A stretch of 64,000 bases of DNA from Candidatus Harrisonbacteria bacterium (GTDB lineage: Bacteria > Patescibacteriota > Minisyncoccia > UBA6257 > UBA11618), in the NCBI GenBank assembly GCA_023244835.1, contig JAHFLN010000001.1, positions 4,912 to 68,911 of the forward strand. The letters run 5' to 3'. The position numbers were made by a program, and so were the translations under genes. Every line of letters begins with the position of its first letter. Position 1 is the first letter of the stretch. The notes below the pieces were generated by a model. It searched no databases and was not told the origin of the DNA. It saw only the letters and a list, made by a program, of their open reading frames with translations. Below, one piece after another: positions 4,537-62,278 of the stretch.

Positions 4537-5040
4537 TTATTTCTTCGCTTTCTTAGGTTTCAGCTGGCTCAAGGCCTCGATCGTTGCCAAAGCGTTCGTG
4601 AGCTTGTTGGGCGTGCGGCCGAGCGTTTTTGCCGTGATGTCCTTGATGCCGCATAGCGAGAGGACGACGCGCGCCGCGCCGCCCGCGCGCATGCCGTGGC
4701 CGACCGAAGCAGGTTTCAGGCGGATATGGGCCGCGGAGAACTTCGCCTCGACTTCATGCACTATCGAGCGCTTGTCGAGTTCCACCGTGATGAGGTTCTT
4801 CTTGGCCGCCGCACGGCCCTTTGCGATCGCGGCCGGCACGTCGATGCTTTTCCCTACGCCTACGCCCACGCGGCCCAGGCTGTCGCCAATCACGACCGTC
4901 GCGCGGAAGCGGAACCGCTTGCCGCCCGCCACGACGCGGGTGACGCGGCGCAAGTCGAGGACCTTGTCCTTGAACTCGTCCTGGGGCTGTCGTGCGAAGC
5001 CGCCCTTATTCCCCCCTCCGTATGTGCGCTGTTCTGCCAT
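4537..5040 (-). CDS. rpsE: 30S ribosomal protein S5
   Basis: S5 dsRBD region RVTRVVAGGKRFRFRATVVIGD; directly adjacent to rplO with no L30 gene between. Confidence 0.9.
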   Translation of the reverse strand: MAEQRTYGGGNKGGFARQPQDEFKDKVLDLRRVTRVVAGGKRFRFRATVVIGDSLGRVGVGVGKSIDVPAAIAKGRAAAKKNLITVELDKRSIVHEVEAKFSAAHIRLKPASVGHGMRAGGAARVVLSLCGIKDITAKTLGRTPNKLTNALATIEALSQLKPKKAKK

Positions 5041-9194: not shown

Positions 9195-9563
9195 TTATAC
9201 GATCTCTTCCGCGAGGGAGAAGATGCCGTCGAAGCCCATTTCCTTGATTTCGCGCGGGATTGGCCCGAAGATGCGTGTCGCGCGCGGCTGCTTCTTGTCG
9301 TCGATCAAGACGACCGCGTTCTCATCGAAGCGCAGGCGCGTGCCATCGGGGCGGTTTATCGCGTGCGCCGTGCGCACGATGATGCATTTCACGATATCCT
9401 TCTTCTTTACCGCCTTCCGAGGCTCTGCGGTCTGGACGGACGCGATGACCGTCTCTCCGAGGTGTGCGTAGCGCTTGCGGCTCCCGCCGAGCAGCCTGAA
9501 GACACGGACGAATTTCGCGCCCGAGTTATCCGCAACTTTCAGTATCGAACGTTCCTGTACCAT
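9195..9563 (-). CDS. rplN: 50S ribosomal protein L14
   Basis: MVQERSILKVADNSGAK L14 N-terminus. Confidence 0.93.
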   Translation of the reverse strand: MVQERSILKVADNSGAKFVRVFRLLGGSRKRYAHLGETVIASVQTAEPRKAVKKKDIVKCIIVRTAHAINRPDGTRLRFDENAVVLIDDKKQPRATRIFGPIPREIKEMGFDGIFSLAEEIV

Positions 9564-9706
9564 ACCCTGTGTTACAAATTAAGCTTATTACTTATAAATC
9601 TATTGAAACTTGATTATACTCCCGATTTCTTTATTTGCCTAGTGTGTTTGCGATTCTTTAATCCCGCATTTTGCGGGATGGCTGAATTTGTAACACGGGG
9701 CATATG
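9561..9706. repeat. Family-1 palindromic intergenic element (terminal inverted repeats CCCTGTGTTACAAATT / AATTTGTAACACGGGG) between rpsQ and rplN
   Basis: ~18 bp inverted arms 105 bp apart; left arm overlaps the rplN start codon; inner hairpin CCCGCATTTTGCGGG. Confidence 0.7.
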
Positions 9707-9707
9707 C

Positions 9708-9959
9708 TTATTCGGCCTTGCCGACGATTATCCAGCGCTTCTCTTTTGACATCGGGCGCGTGGCGTGGATTACGACCGCGTCTCCCGTCTTATATTCGTT
9801 CTTCTCGTCATGCGCCTTGAATCTGGAGTGGACGGTGTATTGCTTCAGATACTTGGGGTGGCGTTTCGTTTCCGAAACCTCGACGACGCGGGTCTTCATC
9901 ATCTTGTCGGAGACGACGATGCCCTGCCGCTTGCGTACGTTTATCGCTTTCTTTTCCAT
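9708..9959 (-). CDS. rpsQ: 30S ribosomal protein S17
   Basis: 83 aa, S17-like GIVVSDKMMKTRVVEV. Confidence 0.9.
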   Translation of the reverse strand: MEKKAINVRKRQGIVVSDKMMKTRVVEVSETKRHPKYLKQYTVHSRFKAHDEKNEYKTGDAVVIHATRPMSKEKRWIIVGKAE

Positions 9960-9964
9960 GATAT

Positions 9965-10171
9965 TTATTTCTTTGCCGGGGCGAGCGCTTTTCGGGCGGT
10001 GAGTATCCGGGCGATATCTTTCTTCATCGTCCGTATTCCCTTTATATTCTTGACTTTTCCCGACATCAAATCGATCTTAGATTGCCATAATTTTTCGCGA
10101 AATTCAAGGGCGAGCTTTGCGAGCTCCGCATCTGTCTTCCCTTTGAAATTTTCCTTAGCTTGCTTTGCCAT
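9965..10171 (-). CDS. rpmC: 50S ribosomal protein L29
   Basis: 68 aa helical; synteny. Confidence 0.85.
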   Translation of the reverse strand: MAKQAKENFKGKTDAELAKLALEFREKLWQSKIDLMSGKVKNIKGIRTMKKDIARILTARKALAPAKK

Positions 10172-27623: not shown

Positions 27624-27662
27624 ACGCGAAAAATCATGCGCGACTATGCGGAACGTCGCATG

Positions 27663-27691
27663 CGCCGGGCTCTCACAGCCCGGCGTTTTTC
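27663..27691 (+). terminator. Rho-independent terminator
   Basis: CGCCGGGCT-CTCAC-AGCCCGGCG plus T5. Confidence 0.65.
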
Positions 27692-27783
27692 ATCCTTGTA
27701 TAATTGACATTTATCAGAAAATAAAGTTTGATAATCGTGTTGTTACCCACCCCCGCATCTTTCACAACTCAAGGAGTCCCGTT

Positions 27784-28869
27784 ATGGGAAGGCTCGAAGT
27801 AATCAAGACCATTCCTGCACAGAAAGCCGTGCGCGCCCCGCGCATCGTGGAGCCTGCTCCGACCGCAGGCTTCGCGAAATTCACTGAATTTCAAGATGCT
27901 ACGGGAGCCGATCTCTCCCTCGACGATGCCCTTGTTCGCGCGGGCTATCTCGAGCATGCCGATGAAACGGCGTTCTTTACCCGCTATCGCGGCACCGTCG
28001 CCAGCCGTTTCTCGAAAATCGGGCTTGGAAAAGCGTTTCCGCCTTCCATCCGGCATCGGCTTAATGCGGCAACTCATCTCCAAGCGATCTTTGTCGATCA
28101 GCCTGAATTCCACGAAGCGCTCATTCTCGCGTGGGGATCCTATGCCGACGCCACTCTCAAGGCGGCCCGGAAAAGCCAGAGAGCGGACATTCTCGAGTCA
28201 TTCGGTTTTCCTTCCGGCTTTTTCGAGATCCATGAGCCGTCGGGCATGCCTATGACCACGATCGCCGTCTGGGGTATGGTGCCGGATAACAAAGGTCTCG
28301 CCTATGCGAAGGCGATGGACTGGCTTGCCGCCTTGGGGACTTTGAATCCTTATAAACGGAGGGATGCCCGCTCATTCGAGATCCGGCCGGGAATCAACAC
28401 CGTGTCGCTTTTTCAGCGGTCGCCGACCATTGCGCATACGGGACGCTGTCTCGCATCGTTCGGCATTCCACTTACGCATAATGAGGCTGACCGCCTCATC
28501 CGGAAAGCAGGATACGTTCCCGGAGGGTTCAAGGATCTCATCCAACATCTCACGCCGGAGATCATTCTCGGAATTCCAAACCCGAACTATCCCGACCTTA
28601 CGGGAAGGAACCAAACACCGGAACGGATCAATGGCATCGTTTCGGGCGCGCCGATCGTCGCGCTCGCATCTGCCGACGAGCACCATGTCCCCTGTTTCTC
28701 GCTTACTTCGACATACGGAGTTACGCTCGATGCGGCTTCCCTGGGAGGAGGCGGATTCCCGCCACACACCCGGTTCATAGCGCTTTCGGGTGCCCGTGAA
28801 ATAAAGACGCGATCTCCGTATGAGACACGAGACGTTCCCGGAACGACTCGCGAAGGCGTCCTGCTCTGA
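27784..28869 (+). CDS. Hypothetical protein (361 aa)
   Basis: TTGACA-17-GATAAT promoter at ~27707-27740; AAGGAG Shine-Dalgarno; track ORF 27646 start rejected because it begins inside the upstream terminator. Confidence 0.5.
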   Translation: MGRLEVIKTIPAQKAVRAPRIVEPAPTAGFAKFTEFQDATGADLSLDDALVRAGYLEHADETAFFTRYRGTVASRFSKIGLGKAFPPSIRHRLNAATHLQAIFVDQPEFHEALILAWGSYADATLKAARKSQRADILESFGFPSGFFEIHEPSGMPMTTIAVWGMVPDNKGLAYAKAMDWLAALGTLNPYKRRDARSFEIRPGINTVSLFQRSPTIAHTGRCLASFGIPLTHNEADRLIRKAGYVPGGFKDLIQHLTPEIILGIPNPNYPDLTGRNQTPERINGIVSGAPIVALASADEHHVPCFSLTSTYGVTLDAASLGGGGFPPHTRFIALSGAREIKTRSPYETRDVPGTTREGVLL

Positions 28870-35547: not shown

Positions 35548-35635
35548 GGAGGGGTCGCATAGCGGCCTAGTGCACCATCTTGGAAAGGTGGCATACCGAA
35601 AGGTATCGAGGGTTCGAATCCCTCCCCCTCCGCCA
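35548..35635 (+). tRNA. tRNA-Ser (anticodon GGA), class II with long variable arm, CCA encoded
   Basis: Acceptor GGAGGGG/CCCCTCC; anticodon stem CCATC/GGTGG; loop TTGGAAA; T-loop GGTTCGAATCC; TTGAAC-17-TATACT promoter upstream. Confidence 0.85.
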
Positions 35636-35656
35636 GATTGGCAACTTTGAACCAAT

Positions 35657-36430
35657 ATGAATACATGGACTAAAAAGAGTATAGAACTGGCGCGTAAACC
35701 GGGATATTTAGATGCCTTGGGCGCTATTTATGTTATGAATATAAATCCTAGTAGACCACTAACGGAAGAAGTTGAGAAAAAAATACGAGAGGCTTTCCAT
35801 AATAGAAAAAATAAAGAGTTAGTTCATCTGTTAATTCAAAACGAAGTCTTTCCGGTCAAGGATTCTTATGTCGGATTTTTAAGACTTAACCCTGCGGCTA
35901 TTGATCAAAATCCGATAACTATCAATAGAATATCAGAAAGGCTTTACTCATTGGGGATTGAAGCACTTCTTAAGGAGGCAACTCGTCCTAAAGAGACAAA
36001 TCGTCAACTCGGACACTCATTCAAAAAATGGTTGCCTCAATTAGGTTATCCCGTACTTAATGTAGAAGAGTTTGCCAATACTCGAGGTGTGGCCATCCTT
36101 GCCGGTGGGGACGCACAACTTGCAAAATACGCTAGAGAGAAGTTGGGCTGTGAATTATCCAAAGGTATTGATTTTGTTTTAAAGAAAGGAAAGAATCATA
36201 TTATTGGTGAAGCTAAATTTCTTACAACTCCTGGAGGAGAGCAAGATCGAGGTTTTGATGACGCATCAAATTTTATTAAAGGAAAATTGCGCCCAAATGT
36301 GAAAAGAATAGCTGTTTTGGATGGCTATATCTGGGTAGAACGAACTGGTGGGCTCCACAATAAGATCGTGATGAACAACCTTGATATTTTTAGTGCTCTA
36401 CTCCTTCCCGAATATATTAAAAAGTTTTAG
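35657..36430 (+). CDS. Putative type II restriction endonuclease, PD-(D/E)xK-like
   Basis: AT-rich gene beginning 22 bp after the tRNA; candidate GIDFV...IIGEAKF catalytic motif; convergent with and overlapping the methyltransferase stop. Confidence 0.5.
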   Translation: MNTWTKKSIELARKPGYLDALGAIYVMNINPSRPLTEEVEKKIREAFHNRKNKELVHLLIQNEVFPVKDSYVGFLRLNPAAIDQNPITINRISERLYSLGIEALLKEATRPKETNRQLGHSFKKWLPQLGYPVLNVEEFANTRGVAILAGGDAQLAKYAREKLGCELSKGIDFVLKKGKNHIIGEAKFLTTPGGEQDRGFDDASNFIKGKLRPNVKRIAVLDGYIWVERTGGLHNKIVMNNLDIFSALLLPEYIKKF

Positions 36431-38187
36431 GTTGCAGAATAAACCTCAAAAGAAGCTTTTAATTTAGCTCCTTCTTTTTCTATAAGACTAATAGCATTTT
36501 TATTGAGGTCTATTCCTATCCAATTTCTTTTTAGTTCTTCAGCGGCTAGTAGAGTAGTACCCGACCCCGCAAAACAATCCAAAACCAAGTCGTCTTGCGT
36601 TGTAGAGCTCTGAATAATTTGTTTCAATAAGTCTCGATTTTTCTGTGTTGGGTAAAGAGAGCTCTCGAAACCAGGATCTTTAAAGTCCCACACGTCCTGA
36701 AGTTTCTTGCCTCGGTTTTCGTCTGCGTAGATTTTTTTTCGAGGATTCCCTGAACTAGACCACTCAATCAATCCTTCTTTATCTAGGCGTGTTAATTCTT
36801 CAGGGTTATATCTCCAATGCCTTCCTTTCGGTGGGAGCATGCCTTTCCATTCTCTGCCCGTAGGACCATTTCGTGTCTCTCCTTTAGCGTGAAGAGGTGT
36901 GGTGGCATACCTACGCCCTTTTTTGTCAATCTTGGGAAATTGTTTTATGATCTCCTCCTCAGTTAAGGCTATACGATGGTCCGTCCAAGACATTGGGTCA
37001 TGTCCATTTGGTTTTGATTTGGAATAAAAATATATTACATCTTTTATGTTCCCGAAAGCTTTCCTATCGAAATTTTTTGGATTACATTTTATTCTGGTAA
37101 TGTCATTTCTAAAATTTTCCTCTCCGAATACTTCGTCCATTAATACTTTTACATAATGTCCTATTTTCTGATCAATATGGAGGTATATGCTACCTGTTTC
37201 GGAAAGTAATTCTCTAAGAAGGATCAGTCTTTTTCTTAAAAACTCAAGGAAATCTGTGTTTGTAAGTTTGTCGCTATAAAAGTTTTCTTCGTTATAACCA
37301 ACAAAATCTTGCCCTGTACCAAAAGGTGGATCGATATAAATTAATTCGATATTGCCCTTTATATTTTTATTTTCATACAAATTCTTAAGAACACTGAGAT
37401 TGTCGCCTGCAATTAATTTATTTACAGACTTTGATCCATATTTCTTAGTAAGTTTAAGTTGAGCCGCTTTGATTTCAAGAACTTCTTCTTCCTTTATTTT
37501 TCCTCGATAAATCAACTCAGCTCCTCCTTTAGGACGACGTGCATGAGGAATCGTATGAAGAATATTTTCTGCTCTCTCCCTCTCGGAATATCTTTCGTTG
37601 GATTTAATAATATCTATAACTACACCTTGGATAGTTAACCGTTCAGGTTCAATAAAAAGAGGTAGCATTGTTTGGTTCGCAGGCTGTAGCCGTATCCTAT
37701 TTTTCTCCCTAAAAAACTTTTTAAGTGTGGCGGACTCCTGATCAATCAAAGCAACAACTTTTTGACCATTGTGTGCTACCGATTGACTCTGAATCAACAC
37801 AATGTCTCCATCGTTGATATTCTCATCAATCATACTATCGCCATACACACGTAGAGCGTAAACATCACTACTTTTAGGCATTTTCGATTTCGGGATAGCG
37901 ATTGTCTCCTTTTCTTGAATTGCTTCAATTGGCTCGCCTGCAGCAATAGTACCCAGGAGAGGAATGCTTACCAGGGGTTCGCCAGAGGAAATACTTATAG
38001 AACGTGCTTTATTTTCAGATTTATCCAAATATCCACTATCTCGTAGTTTGTTTATATGAAAATGTGCAGTAGAAACAGAGGCAAGTTTAAAATGCCTCTG
38101 TATTTCCTCTAAGGAGGGGGCATACCCTTTCTTTTTGGAAGACTCTTTTACGAAATCGAAGACCTCTTTTTGCTTTTTGGTGAGCAT
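36427..38187 (-). CDS. LexA-like repressor (HTH plus S24 peptidase) fused to beta-class amino-DNA methyltransferase (DPPF ... FAGSGTT)
   Basis: N-terminal ~205 aa align to LexA (IAAGEPI cleavage site, LRVYGDSM Ser, DGDIVLI, NGQKVVALID, TLKKF Lys); C-terminal motif IV IDPPF then motif I DCFAGSGTT. Confidence 0.8.
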   Translation of the reverse strand: MLTKKQKEVFDFVKESSKKKGYAPSLEEIQRHFKLASVSTAHFHINKLRDSGYLDKSENKARSISISSGEPLVSIPLLGTIAAGEPIEAIQEKETIAIPKSKMPKSSDVYALRVYGDSMIDENINDGDIVLIQSQSVAHNGQKVVALIDQESATLKKFFREKNRIRLQPANQTMLPLFIEPERLTIQGVVIDIIKSNERYSERERAENILHTIPHARRPKGGAELIYRGKIKEEEVLEIKAAQLKLTKKYGSKSVNKLIAGDNLSVLKNLYENKNIKGNIELIYIDPPFGTGQDFVGYNEENFYSDKLTNTDFLEFLRKRLILLRELLSETGSIYLHIDQKIGHYVKVLMDEVFGEENFRNDITRIKCNPKNFDRKAFGNIKDVIYFYSKSKPNGHDPMSWTDHRIALTEEEIIKQFPKIDKKGRRYATTPLHAKGETRNGPTGREWKGMLPPKGRHWRYNPEELTRLDKEGLIEWSSSGNPRKKIYADENRGKKLQDVWDFKDPGFESSLYPTQKNRDLLKQIIQSSTTQDDLVLDCFAGSGTTLLAAEELKRNWIGIDLNKNAISLIEKEGAKLKASFEVYSAT

Positions 38188-38242
38188 ATTGATATTATAG
38201 AAAATAAATAGAAAGTATACAAATCAAGTTATCCACAAGGTC

Positions 38243-39238
38243 ATGGCAAAGCATCACATCGTTCAAGACAAATATCTCACTCAATGGAGAAAAAGCGGAA
38301 CAGAAAATCAGCTCAATATTTATGTTATTCATGAAAATCAAATTATAGAAAGAGGACCGGGATGGAAGGGTTTTTGGAGAGATGATTTTAATGTGCTTGA
38401 AGATGACGGTGAAAAGTCCTACCTCCCAGAGGAAGTTACGGTAATTATTGATACAAAGGGTATTGAAGCTGTCAGGAAAATAAATACTACAAGCGAAGAA
38501 TTATTATCAGGTATGGATAGGAGTTGCGTAGCTTTTTATACGGCATTGCAGTACACAAGAACTCCGCGACACAGAGAGGAAACAAACAAATTGATCGAAG
38601 CTACTACCCGACATTTTATGAGAAAAGACCTTCCATCACCAGATAAGGTGCATATGTCCAAAGATAAGATACTCGAGTATAACCCACAGAATAAAATGGA
38701 GGAGGATGCTCTGGATGTGATAAGTAAGATGACGCAAGAGGAAATCAACTCACAGATTTTTAAGGCAATACACGATGATACAGTCAGGATCGGCCTTACA
38801 AAGACAGGCCACTCAAAAGGCATTCTGAAAGTAGATCGTCATGCCGAGAAGATATTTGAAATGCAGTGGCTATTCCTAGTAACTCCTGAGGGTACGTCCT
38901 TCATTACCTCGGATAGCCCTTGTTTTACAATATCCACATCGAAACTGAATGGGCTAATATCGCCTCACTCAACGGTATATTTCCCATTAAGACCAGATAT
39001 ATGTCTTTACATAAAACCGAGCATGAAATCAAAAGCAGAATACTATATGAAGTTAGATAAGGGACAGGTTAGGGATATAAATTCACTGATACTCTCAAAC
39101 AGTACCCAATGTGCAGTTGCCAAGGACAAAATACATTTAGAGAAACTGACCAAGAACTTCGATTACAAAAACCACAGAAAGTCACGCGTTATATCTATTA
39201 GCGAATCGGGGCCATACACAATGTTTACCGCAGAATAG
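38243..39238 (+). CDS. DUF4238-like protein
   Basis: N-terminal KHHIVQDKYLTQW matching the DUF4238 HhxPQxYL motif; AT-rich; adjacent to R-M pair. Confidence 0.5.
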   Translation: MAKHHIVQDKYLTQWRKSGTENQLNIYVIHENQIIERGPGWKGFWRDDFNVLEDDGEKSYLPEEVTVIIDTKGIEAVRKINTTSEELLSGMDRSCVAFYTALQYTRTPRHREETNKLIEATTRHFMRKDLPSPDKVHMSKDKILEYNPQNKMEEDALDVISKMTQEEINSQIFKAIHDDTVRIGLTKTGHSKGILKVDRHAEKIFEMQWLFLVTPEGTSFITSDSPCFTISTSKLNGLISPHSTVYFPLRPDICLYIKPSMKSKAEYYMKLDKGQVRDINSLILSNSTQCAVAKDKIHLEKLTKNFDYKNHRKSRVISISESGPYTMFTAE

Positions 39239-52367: not shown

Positions 52368-53480
52368 TTATTTGAAAATCTCCGGCCGATACCTATTGCT
52401 CGGGTTCCAATTGAGCCACCCCGCGGATAGGCCCGCGTCATGGATTGCCCGTATCTGCGCGCGTACCATCTCAGGCGTATAGTCCGCGCCCATATTGAAA
52501 TCCTGAATCCACGGCCTAATATTCGTGAATGGCTGATTTGCGGCCATAAATATCTCCTTCCCCTTCGCGAGCGTACCCGCCATCACCTCATAAGGATGCG
52601 CCGCCGGATTATCGAAGCCGAAATTGCCCGCGTCGAAATGCGACGGGTAAATCATCGGACAAATCGCATCAAATACTGCCGCGAGAGCCGGCGCCGACTG
52701 ACCGATACCGAGATCCGCCTTTCGCATAAAGGTGTAGCCGAAAATATCGGCGGTTAAGCGGATATCCGGATAGTCCCTCTTGATCTCATTTTTCAGATAA
52801 TTCGCGGCCTCTACGATAACATCGCTTTTTTCCCTACCAGCCCCTTCCCGCCAGAATGGATAAACCGCGGTCGTCACTCCTTCGGAGGGAAACCTAAAAT
52901 AATCGAAATTAATTTCACCGAAACCCGCGTCAACCGCTTCCTTCGCGATGCCCGCAACATGCGCCCACGCCTCCTTATTACTCGGATCGAGCCAATGCCG
53001 CCCTCCATTATCGCGCCATAAGCCGCCGCCAGCGCCGTGTACGGCCCAACTCGGCTTCTCTGCCGCTATATTATTATTCTGAAACACCACAAGCCGCGCG
53101 ATGGGGAAGATGCGCAGGAACCGCAAGCGGCGGATCGCCGCACGCAGACGATCATCGATTAAAACGCGCCCGGAATCGTCTTGGATATCCACAACGACCG
53201 CATTCGGCGCCATGTCACCCGAAGCGTCTTTTATAAGACTCACGATGCCGTCCATCTTTCCGCTCCGCAGGATCGAGGCGGTAATATACAGCGCTCGAAC
53301 TTCTGCCGGATATTCGAGAGGAGTAAGCGGCGGGAGAACGATCTGATCCGGAGCTACTACCGCTACCGCTTGAGCCTCCTGCCCCATAGACGCCGGAACG
53401 GGACGGGTGGTTATGAACGCCGCGCCCGATGCTGAAACAATCATAAGCGCCGATGCGAGCACTTTCGCCTTACCGGGCAT
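52368..53480 (-). CDS. Putative glycoside-hydrolase-like TIM-barrel protein (DUF4015-like), signal-anchored
   Basis: ...INFDYFRFPSEG... pattern; start chosen at MPGKAKVLASALMIV. Confidence 0.45.
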   Translation of the reverse strand: MPGKAKVLASALMIVSASGAAFITTRPVPASMGQEAQAVAVVAPDQIVLPPLTPLEYPAEVRALYITASILRSGKMDGIVSLIKDASGDMAPNAVVVDIQDDSGRVLIDDRLRAAIRRLRFLRIFPIARLVVFQNNNIAAEKPSWAVHGAGGGLWRDNGGRHWLDPSNKEAWAHVAGIAKEAVDAGFGEINFDYFRFPSEGVTTAVYPFWREGAGREKSDVIVEAANYLKNEIKRDYPDIRLTADIFGYTFMRKADLGIGQSAPALAAVFDAICPMIYPSHFDAGNFGFDNPAAHPYEVMAGTLAKGKEIFMAANQPFTNIRPWIQDFNMGADYTPEMVRAQIRAIHDAGLSAGWLNWNPSNRYRPEIFK

Positions 53481-54327
53481 ACGGGAAAATAACGATGAAC
53501 CACGCGGCGGCCGACAGGAGCACCGCGAGGACCTTCTCGGGAAGATTCGCAACGAGGCTTTTCCGAAGCTCTATCTTCTTCGGATCGTATTTATCCCGCA
53601 TGAATTCTCCGATCGCCTGCTTAAGCTCCTCAGCCGATGCCATAACCGCAAGACGCCCGTCACGGGCGACCGAAATCGTTCCCTTTTCCTCCGATACGAT
53701 GACGGCGAGCACGTCGGACACTTCGGCGATACCCAAGCCCGCGCTATGGCGCGTGCCGTACGATTCGATCTGCCCGAAATCCTGCGACAACGGAAGGTGC
53801 ACGCCGAATTTAGCAATAAGCCCGCCCGCGATTACAAGAGCTCCATCATGCCCCGGCGAGCTCGCGTCGAATATACTTTCAAGGAGAGGCTCTGAGATCT
53901 TCCCCTCGAGTGAAAATCCGCCGCTTAAGTGGCGGCCGATCGCTTCACGGCCCGTGAATACCACGATCATGCCGATTTTCTCCTTACTGAAACGCTCCGC
54001 AACCCGCACTACGCACTCAACAATACCCGTTCCCGGCCGTTTCTTCATCGAGGCTCCTCCCGCGCCTATCCATATGGCGATCATCTCGAAATATCTCCGC
54101 AGTTCCGCCTGGAATATAATCACAAGGCCGAGCAGAAATACGCTGAAAAAAAGATTCAACGCCGCGGCGGACAGACGTAAGCCAAATGTGTTTGCGGCGG
54201 CATAGACTACGGATACGACGATAATCCCGTACACGACGAAGAGCGACCGCGTCTGCTTCAGGAGCATGATAAGCCCGTACGTGAGGAACGAAGAAAGCCC
54301 GATATCGAGAATATCTATCAATCTCAT
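53470..54327 (-). CDS. cdaA: Diadenylate cyclase CdaA (c-di-AMP synthase)
   Basis: N-terminal TM helices; DAC domain motifs DGALVI, GTRHSAGLGIAE, AVIVSEE. Confidence 0.85.
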   Translation of the reverse strand: MRLIDILDIGLSSFLTYGLIMLLKQTRSLFVVYGIIVVSVVYAAANTFGLRLSAAALNLFFSVFLLGLVIIFQAELRRYFEMIAIWIGAGGASMKKRPGTGIVECVVRVAERFSKEKIGMIVVFTGREAIGRHLSGGFSLEGKISEPLLESIFDASSPGHDGALVIAGGLIAKFGVHLPLSQDFGQIESYGTRHSAGLGIAEVSDVLAVIVSEEKGTISVARDGRLAVMASAEELKQAIGEFMRDKYDPKKIELRKSLVANLPEKVLAVLLSAAAWFIVIFPYAR

Positions 54328-54335
54328 ATGAGCAG

Positions 54336-54430
54336 TATACCCCGTGTTACAAATCCGACCATATATGACCCGTCATATTAGCTCGTCCATAGCGTTTCTA
54401 CACCACGTCGGATTTGTAACACGGGGTATA
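54336..54430. repeat. Family-1 palindromic element: perfect 24 bp inverted repeat TATACCCCGTGTTACAAATCCGAC / GTCGGATTTGTAACACGGGGTATA
   Basis: Arms 54336-54359 and 54407-54430; 47 bp spacer; begins 9 nt from cdaA start codon. Confidence 0.8.
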
Positions 54431-54440
54431 CCTCGTCGTG

Positions 54441-54489
54441 AAAAAAATACAGCCGCTCTACCCGATACCGGGAGCGGCTGTATTTTTTA
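54441..54489. terminator. Bidirectional rho-independent terminator
   Basis: A7-ATACAGCCGCTC...GAGCGGCTGTAT-T6. Confidence 0.7.
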
Positions 54490-54505
54490 AAACCGACAGT
54501 TCGCG

Positions 54506-55168
54506 CTACAGCGCGATCAGAATATCCTTCTTTCCTCCCGCAACCACATCGATCGGCATCATTTTTATAGATTCATTCGGAATGCCGGTGTCGTTCGAAA
54601 GCGTACGCACCTTTACCTCGTCGTACGCGATAGCCGCGAGCGATACGGTGAAGATATTCGTCACGGAACCTGCCTGAACGGGCTTATAACCGTCATAGAC
54701 CTGTATCCATCCGCCGTTCGCGTCGGCTACGCGATACGGATTATGCACGAAGATTTCGCGCACCGTTACCGCCGTAGGCGACGATACCGAGAACGACACC
54801 TCGCCCTTCCCTACCGCGGCCGGAACGGCTGTTCCCTGCGCAGGAGCTTCGGGCATCGAAGGAGAGACCGCTTCTTCCGCCGGACCCGCGCCCGCAGGCG
54901 GCATGGTGTCTAGAACATCGGCCCCGGTCGATGTCGCTTCCTCCGCCGCCTCGGTCGATGTCGAGACTGCTTCTTCCGCCGCCGGCATGCCAGCAGTCGA
55001 TGACGACATGAGAAGCTTAACCCCTACGACTACGATTACGAGCACCAGTATGACTATGGCGAGATTAGTGCCTGCCTGACCCTTATCCTCTTCAGGAGCC
55101 TTATGCTCCCCATAGTATGACGCGCCATTACCCACCCGATTTCCCTGCTCCGATCCTATTGGTTCCAT
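54506..55168 (-). CDS. Membrane-anchored hypothetical protein with Ala/Glu/Pro-rich linker
   Basis: TM helix then low-complexity linker and C-terminal beta-rich domain. Confidence 0.5.
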   Translation of the reverse strand: MEPIGSEQGNRVGNGASYYGEHKAPEEDKGQAGTNLAIVILVLVIVVVGVKLLMSSSTAGMPAAEEAVSTSTEAAEEATSTGADVLDTMPPAGAGPAEEAVSPSMPEAPAQGTAVPAAVGKGEVSFSVSSPTAVTVREIFVHNPYRVADANGGWIQVYDGYKPVQAGSVTNIFTVSLAAIAYDEVKVRTLSNDTGIPNESIKMMPIDVVAGGKKDILIAL

Positions 55169-62022: not shown

Positions 62023-62141
62023 TGTTTTCCGTACGCCTTATCCGACGACCTTTATATATATCCATAGTATCACGACGATATCTCCTTTTCGCAACGCCCC
62101 CGATGCTTGACGCGCGACCGATAATCTCCGTATGCTCCGAT

Positions 62142-62278
62142 CATGCCCCGTGTTATAAATCCGATCTTTCCCGCGGGGAAAATAAAAAACCACGAAATCC
62201 ATATATGATAATCAGAACGATGCATATCAATGACCCCTATCAACCCGATAATCAATCGGATTTGTAACACGGGGCATG
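62142..62278. repeat. Family-1 palindromic element: CATGCCCCGTGTTATAAATCCGAT / ATCGGATTTGTAACACGGGGCATG (23/24 match)
   Basis: Arms 62142-62165 and 62255-62278, 89 bp spacer; right-arm terminal ATG is the dcd start codon. Confidence 0.8.

Follow-up and report, generated by a model that had tools for sequence, protein, structure and literature searches.

A perfect inverted repeat directly upstream of cdaA

In a contig of Candidatus Harrisonbacteria (JAHFLN010000001.1), the diadenylate cyclase gene cdaA is preceded by a perfect inverted repeat, and the question arises whether this repeat is a regulatory structure of cdaA or a mobile element. We analysed it within a stretch of 64,000 nucleotides (positions 4,912 to 68,911 of the forward strand), here called the window, to which all coordinates without a contig handle refer. 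The sequence TATACCCCGTGTTACAAATCCGAC at 54336-54359 on the plus strand and its reverse complement at 54407-54430 on the minus strand match without a single mismatch, and none of 100 dinucleotide-preserving shuffles of the window gave any such match, even with up to 3 mismatches allowed. A repeat finder lengthens each arm by one base to 25 nt (54335-54359 and 54407-54431; 25/25 complementary, spacer 47 nt). The perfect 24 bp repeat with a 47 bp spacer upstream of cdaA, as reported in a preliminary description of this DNA, is therefore confirmed. The distance of 9 nt to the cdaA ATG given there is right when counted to the A of the ATG, whereas the intervening nucleotides number 8 from the 24-nt arm and 7 from the 25-nt arm. 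The 25/25 complementarity is composed of terminal inverted repeats (TIRs) of 20 nt and a palindromic target-site duplication (TSD), so that the locus is built up as follows.

53470 to 54327, minus strand: cdaA, diadenylate cyclase, downstream of the repeat (Pfam DAC 3.4e-32, CdaA_N 3.5e-07), with the ATG at 54327-54325
54334 to 54339, minus strand: -10-like hexamer TATACT, separated from the cdaA ATG by 6 nt; the duplicated target makes up its first four bases
54336 to 54339, no strand: cdaA-proximal TSD, TATA (sequence and flank listing), which together with 54334-54335 reads TATACT on the minus strand
54340 to 54359, no strand: cdaA-proximal TIR CCCCGTGTTACAAATCCGAC (repeat finder, motif search)
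54360 to 54406, no strand: interior, a unique sequence of 47 nt that would form two small internal hairpins on folding
54407 to 54426, no strand: distal TIR GTCGGATTTGTAACACGGGG (repeat finder, motif search)
54427 to 54430, no strand: distal TSD, TATA (sequence and flank listing)
54442 to 54488, minus strand: terminator-type hairpin of the upstream gene, outside the element

The last of these features, which lies just past the stop codon of the gene at 54506-55168 (minus strand), has a perfect stem of 17 bp (54442-54458 and 54472-54488), a loop of 13 nt, an A-run before and a T-run after it. It is a distinct hairpin that belongs to the upstream gene, and the terminator is thus separate from the element, as had been proposed. 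A simple terminator scan missed it, since its loop exceeds the limit of 8 nt, and consensus scans for sigma-70 promoters and terminators over 54200-54600 returned nothing. The inverted repeat itself was rejected as an intrinsic terminator, because no T-run follows either arm and the terminator scan finds none there. A riboswitch, a small RNA or a c-di-AMP leader was dismissed as well: Rfam models gave nothing over the element at gathering or permissive thresholds, only tRNA passes the gathering score in the whole window, and the best score over the element, that of ncr1175, is 29 bits against a cutoff of 60. The sole open reading frame in the 87 nt between the two duplications is a 48-codon frame that is not conserved in the other copies described below.

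A family of elements with common termini

At up to 3 mismatches, the window contains six occurrences of the core CCCCGTGTTACAAATC, all of them in inverted pairs. Next to the repeat at cdaA, which we call copy B, there are two further arm pairs, 9562-9584/9681-9703 (copy A) and 62142-62165/62255-62278 (copy C).

9561 to 9704, no strand: copy A, with TSD CATA at 9561-9564, element of 136 nt at 9565-9700 and TSD CATA at 9701-9704
62142 to 62278, no strand: copy C, with TSD CATG at 62142-62145, element of 129 nt at 62146-62274 and TSD CATG at 62275-62278

Copy A fills the gap between the genes for the ribosomal proteins S17 (9708-9899, minus strand) and L14 (9195-9563, minus strand); its arms are separated by 96 nt and are 87% complementary, and its TSD at 9561-9564 contains the L14 start codon on the minus strand. 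Copy C lies between the genes for DoxX and dCTP deaminase (dcd), has a spacer of 89 nt and arms that are 96% complementary, and its distal TSD contains the dcd ATG at 62276. With 25/25 complementary positions, copy B is indeed the best preserved of the three, and it is plausible that it is also the most recent.

Five more elements bring the family to eight elements with common termini. When one genome per species was scanned with 18-mers, paired arms were detected in one metagenome-assembled genome only (JAUSHG01), where one copy is situated between smpB and ftsH (contig L002) and another ahead of the atp operon (L010). Paired arms were also found in two contigs by a metagenome scan (L011 and L018), and L025 harbors a divergent pair ahead of dcd with the arms CCCTGTGCTACAACT and CCCCGTGCTACAACT. 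All five contigs are from Patescibacteria, and the earlier assignment of copy B to a repeated family holds within the window and beyond it. According to its ribosomal proteins, whose matches bear names such as Paceibacterota, Pacebacteria and Harrisonbacteria, the organism of the window belongs to Patescibacteria as well. The idea that the 47-nt spacer might recur as well did not bear out: in all DNA examined it matches solely the same locus in other samples. The common anatomy comprises TIRs of 13-23 nt with the core CCCCGTGTTACAA, a variable interior of 40-100 nt and a 4-bp TSD of the form YATR.

No solo or decayed arm was found in any DNA examined with a profile built from the arms, and approximately 57 kb from close relatives (about 41 kb of the closest relative, syntenic with the window, and 16 kb of L030) contain no arm. 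The 18-mer scans also gave 14 lone-arm matches in unrelated taxa, which have no partner arm, lie within chance expectation and were discarded. Plasmids, phages and viral contigs yielded no match to the element, and an origin from a phage or plasmid was rejected, the 16 viral single-arm matches having no partner arm (two of them, in L045 and L046, represent a single site).

No tested ORF of the window encodes a transposase. The ORF at 27646-28869 (407 aa) matches none of the Pfam families and by eye does not resemble a transposase, and no arm pair at the spacing of an autonomous insertion sequence (IS) occurs in any DNA examined.

Two other peculiarities of these genomes may be mentioned here. 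Following a tRNA gene, the window contains an island of low GC3 (35548-39238; GC3 of 0.30-0.39 compared to approximately 0.6-0.8 elsewhere), which encodes a Tsp45I-type restriction enzyme (35657-36430, plus strand), a DUF4238 protein and a protein of 586 aa (36427-38187, minus strand) in which a LexA DNA-binding domain is fused to an S24 peptidase and an N6/N4 DNA methylase. The island resembles an acquired restriction-modification locus, and its LexA-methylase fusion is unusual. The S10-spc operon of the lineage, for its part, is broken by several non-ribosomal ORFs that belong to no Pfam family and in part lie on the opposite strand (L027 3951-5244, 10437-11147 and 12849-13334; the corresponding region of the window is at about 2-16 kb).

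Empty sites and target-site duplication

The closest relative available, represented by L019/L020 and, for the ribosomal operon, by L027, has a CdaA that is 91% identical and shows synteny with the window, but it lacks all three copies. In filled sites, a tetramer is present on both sides of CCCCGTGTTACAA...TTGTAACACGGGG, where the relative has a single TATG or CATG. At the start of dcd, the empty site of L019 reads GAGAGTAA CATG ATCGGAGC (GTAA CATG ATCGG), and the window with copy C reads GAGAGTAA CATG, followed by 129 nt (CCCCGTG...CACGGGG), CATG and ATCGGAGC. Between the S17 and L14 genes, L030 has ...GAAATA TATG GTACAGG and L027 a gap of 11 nt, while the window with copy A has GAATAAGCA TATG, 136 nt and TATG GTACAGG. 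The third case is independent of the window: L050 is empty with CTCGGGGTTTTCT TATG CTCGCA, and L025 is filled with CTCGGGGTTTTCT TATG, 83 nt, TATG CTCGCAGG ATG, i.e. the stretch GGGGTTTTCT TATG CTCGCA of L050 is broken after TATG in L025 and TATG is duplicated. In all three cases (copies A and C and L025), the one tetramer of the empty site has become two direct copies that flank the element.

Direct repeats of a tetramer flank six of the eight elements, namely TATA/TATA (copy B, L002, L010), CATG/CATG (copy C) and CATA/CATA (copy A, L025), and AATA/TATT, which is not a direct repeat, flanks the two in L011 and L018. Since CATA is not a palindrome, the flanks are more than an extension of the inverted repeat. 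A duplication of only 2 bp (AT), or a blunt insertion of an element with the ends TG...CA, was considered and rejected; both fit the palindromic cases only and need extra mutations for the CATA/CATA flanks of copy A and L025. Empty sites together with such duplications characterize a TIR transposon that duplicates a 4-bp YATR target.

The TSD of copy B was set by the model derived from the empty sites of copy A, copy C and L025. L019 has 38 unrelated nt at this position, so the empty site of this closest relative is not clean, and the boundary and insertion of copy B are inferred from the other copies and from more distant relatives. The element is absent upstream of cdaA in L019/L020, L023, L025 and L047. 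The last three show the order T-run, about 11 nt, TATGAT or TATGCT, 7 nt and ATG, where the reading of a cdaA -10 box is based mainly on L047, because the gene caller starts cdaA of L023 and L025 at the ATG within TATGATG. If the element and one TATA are removed from the window, the order is T-run, CACGACGAGG, TATACT, GCTCAT, ATG; an empty allele would accordingly join TTTCACGACGAGG-TATA-CTGCTCATATG directly.

The 38 nt of L019 (within 9905-9995), CAGCCGCTATCGCGGCCGAGAGAGTTATGAGATAAGCT, lie between GGTAT and CTACTCAT ATG and are missing from the window and from the farther relatives. We also considered the interior of copy B as the ancestral cdaA promoter region, now bracketed by the arms, and rejected this, as its alignment to these 38 nt is not significant (p = 0.15-0.37). 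A different small insertion was seen by eye in L047 (2243-2559), with the inverted repeats TGTACACCCCCACACCT and AGGTGTGGGGGTACA and a short GIY-YIG-like ORF (MYILKSKKDGGLYIGSTNNIKKRITEH...) that has an in-frame stop.

The duplications also bear on the type of mobility. Two inverted repeats of about 20 nt with a variable spacer give a hairpin and have a general likeness to REPINs and attC sites, so that the copies could be hairpin elements moved as a single strand by a Y1/RAYT or IS200/IS605-type transposase, or by a site-specific recombinase as attC sites are. The covariation inside the arms fits this (CCGAC/CCGAC in copy B, CCGAT/CCGAT in copy C, TTCGA/TTCGA in L011). However, Y1 transposition and attC recombination make no TSD, and REPIN/REP-RAYT membership, which requires insertion without one, was rejected in view of the varied 4-bp duplications seen against empty sites. 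An attC site would have the core sites RYYYAAC and GTTRRRY (R'' and R') and lie at the 3' end of a cassette; as judged by reading, the arms lack GTTRRRY (GTTACAA has a C at an R position), and the neighbors are ribosomal and other core housekeeping genes instead of cassettes. We regard this kind of origin as extremely unlikely.

Promoters and start codons as targets

All eight elements are situated at gene starts, and the position of the duplicated tetramer follows a pattern. In copy B, the TSD and the next two bases form TATACT, 6 nt before the cdaA ATG. TATACT is also found 9 nt before the ftsH ATG (L002) and 6 nt before the first ORF of the atp operon (L010), and TATGCT 6 nt before the dcd ATG (L025). 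In copies A and C, the start codon lies within the duplicated tetramer. Among the relatives' genes with an upstream gap of at least 25 nt (L019, L023, L025, L027), 19 of 56 have a TANNNT that ends 6-10 nt before the start codon, compared to approximately 6% by chance, which suggests that leaderless-type expression is widespread in this lineage. Shine-Dalgarno-like sequences are few in the relatives' genes by eye. YATR targets would thus cluster at gene starts because -10-like TANNNT hexamers and leaderless-type promoters are frequent there.

The dcd locus illustrates two different outcomes. Its promoter is recognizable by TTGAC (-35) and TATGC (-10), which are invariant in 5/5 aligned sequences, and the original -10 box is still present in the window:

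62131 to 62136, plus strand: original dcd -10 box TATGCT, now parted from dcd by copy C, with the conserved -35 TTGACG 18 nt upstream

The element of L025 splits the dcd -10 box, and copy C has come to lie between the entire promoter and dcd. Transcription from the old start would yield an RNA that begins with a 21-codon upstream ORF and contains the full hairpin of the element. With regard to the surrounding sequence, the dcd -35 is embedded in a GC-rich hairpin that resembles a terminator of the upstream gene (window 62100-62136; also L019, L025, L048-L050). The sole arm mismatch of copy C is a C-to-T change at 62156 in the dcd-distal arm, by which the motif TGTTACAAAT, also present in the distal arm of copy B, becomes TGTTATAAAT, an improved extended -10-like motif that points inward to dcd. 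Hexamers resembling a -35 occur just inside the arm in L002 (ATGACA) and L025 (TAGGCA). By reading, the arm of copy B has no evident outward -35 (2-3/6 matches at 16-18 nt), and the region upstream of TATACT before the insertion had no recognizable one either, the best being a 2/6 match at 17 nt inside the terminator.

The location at gene starts could also mean that the arm pair is a device of the host. It might consist of two operators that bracket promoters and are recognized by a DNA-binding protein (perhaps a domesticated transposase); alternatively, it might act in 5' leaders as a regulatory RNA hairpin. Besides the 8/8 elements at gene starts, two findings speak for such a function: the arms of copies A, B and C would pair when folded as single strands (z-scores -6.5 to -10.5), and the element shared by L011 and L018 is more conserved than its flanking genes (see below). 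On the other side, the same promoters exist in the closest relatives without the element, its boundaries bear target duplications, and the downstream genes (L14, cdaA, dcd, ftsH, atp operon, surface protein) are functionally unrelated. Moreover, copy B would be outside the cdaA mRNA if transcription starts after the regenerated -10 box, and no Rfam family comes near its threshold. Either version of such a host device, also when both are taken together, therefore seems very unlikely to us. For copy A, one might speculate that formation of its stem would place the S17 stop next to the L14 start and could in this way preserve translational coupling.

Unrelated interiors and a conserved locus

The interiors are unrelated between the copies, with the exception of the orthologous pair L011/L018, so there is no homology over the whole length. 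Copies B and C differ in their 20-nt termini by one position per arm and by the single C-to-T change in the left arm of copy C, and directly inside these termini the sequences diverge on both sides. A weak similarity was found between copy C and L011, which share the 10-mer ACGATGCATA. MITE families (miniature inverted-repeat transposable elements) are usually homogeneous along their length, although this is not part of the minimal definition. The unrelated interiors are unlike the prediction of a simple amplification of one master MITE.

It is conceivable that each copy is the remnant of a separate full-length IS whose interior was deleted in situ and which never transposed as a miniature. 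The differing interiors and lengths (87, 129 and 136 nt in the window) would be expected in this case, no two non-orthologous copies have a common interior, and a loss of non-essential DNA is to be expected in the streamlined genomes of Patescibacteria. However, remnants of this kind should have common subterminal sequences, whereas copies B and C diverge immediately past their termini, and random deletions should often remove one TIR, whereas solo arms are absent from the DNA examined. We consider this origin unlikely.

The elements of L011 (680-805) and L018 (5704-5833) occupy the same locus in organisms of 53% and 43% GC. They are 86% identical (22/23 in the left arm, 84% in the non-coding interior), compared to 57-68% for the flanking coding DNA. 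The downstream ORF, encoding a surface protein, has its start inside the element (ATGATGCATGCTAAGCGCGAT), and the right arm encodes (G/E)FVTRGI, which forms part of the signal peptide. This conservation hints at a constraint beyond that of a selfish insertion, and since it coincides with an ORF that starts in the element, some copies seem to have been co-opted. One could even assume that the conserved part is only the pair of termini of about 20 nt, which together with the regenerated YATR would form a portable, selectively maintained promoter-proximal module, with a hairpin or a protein-bound arm pair that could be kept by the host, possibly via a domesticated transposase. The free interiors, the perfect arms and the L011/L018 element outlasting its flanking genes would all follow from this, and that element would then supply a start codon and the N-terminus of a signal peptide. 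Nevertheless, we give this assumption only a small chance.

Origin of copy B and its significance

In our opinion, the inverted repeat upstream of cdaA is very probably a miniature, non-coding, TIR-bounded transposable element, i.e. MITE-like. The copies are short and non-coding, possess TIRs and a TSD of fixed length, have empty counterparts in relatives and occur several times (three pairs in 64 kb). According to the mechanism we propose, a transposase encoded elsewhere would bind both termini and insert the element into a target cut with a stagger of 4 nt. Copy B would have integrated into the hexamer TATA|CT, 6 nt upstream of the cdaA start codon, and because TATA was duplicated in this process, an intact TATACT would have been rebuilt beside cdaA, with an arm of the element as the sequence upstream of it. 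The position of TATACT 6 nt from the ATG suggests a leaderless-type promoter, and if transcription starts after this hexamer, the hairpin would not be part of the cdaA mRNA. As the ancestral region abutted the terminator and had no recognizable -35, the effect of the insertion on cdaA expression was probably close to neutral. The hairpin should not be annotated as a regulatory element related to c-di-AMP.

Patescibacteria (CPR) have tiny, streamlined genomes, in which mobile DNA is believed to be scarce. The family described here shows that a small transposon can persist in them, apparently because the 4-bp YATR duplication rebuilds the signal that was interrupted, be it the start codon or a -10 box located 6-9 nt away from it. 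Sites of insertion can therefore serve as a natural marker of promoters and leaderless-type starts in an uncultured lineage.

Comparison with known elements

The family resembles prokaryotic MITEs in its length of 71-136 nt, the lack of coding capacity, TIRs of 13-23 nt, a short and fixed TSD, the potential to form hairpins, several copies per genome and presence/absence polymorphism between relatives. It differs from them in that its copies share the termini alone and that no parent IS is known, and also in its 4-bp YATR target in -10 boxes and start codons and in its Patescibacteria (CPR) hosts. We found no paper with MITEs of Patescibacteria in its title or abstract, and the papers whose full text contains both terms seem, to judge by titles and abstracts, to mention them in passing.

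Correia elements duplicate TA, have conserved interiors and are, to our knowledge, confined to Neisseria. In the way it works, the present family is nevertheless like these elements (CREE/NEMIS), which have about 100-150 bp and TIRs of about 26 bp beginning with TATA, are often located beside genes and can alter promoters (PMC5039591). A membership in the Correia family was rejected, as the TIR variants published for it (PMC5039591) align locally no better than shuffled sequences do (p = 0.17-0.55).

The L011/L018 locus, where an ORF starts in the element and reads through its arm, recalls the palindromic elements of Rickettsia (RPE). RPE are small palindromic mobile elements that can land inside coding sequences, whereas most copies of the present family are intergenic. 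There is also a parallel to the hybrid promoters at the ends of IS1, IS2, IS30 and IS257, in which an IS-borne -35 is paired with a resident -10. Here too, insertion directly upstream of a resident -10 puts element DNA in the place of the -35 and the spacer. In contrast to those insertion sequences, the -10 itself is the target in the present family and is rebuilt by duplication. The inverted repeat upstream of cdaA is thus not a cdaA-specific regulator, but one copy of a new MITE-like family in Patescibacteria, which represents a well-known kind of element.
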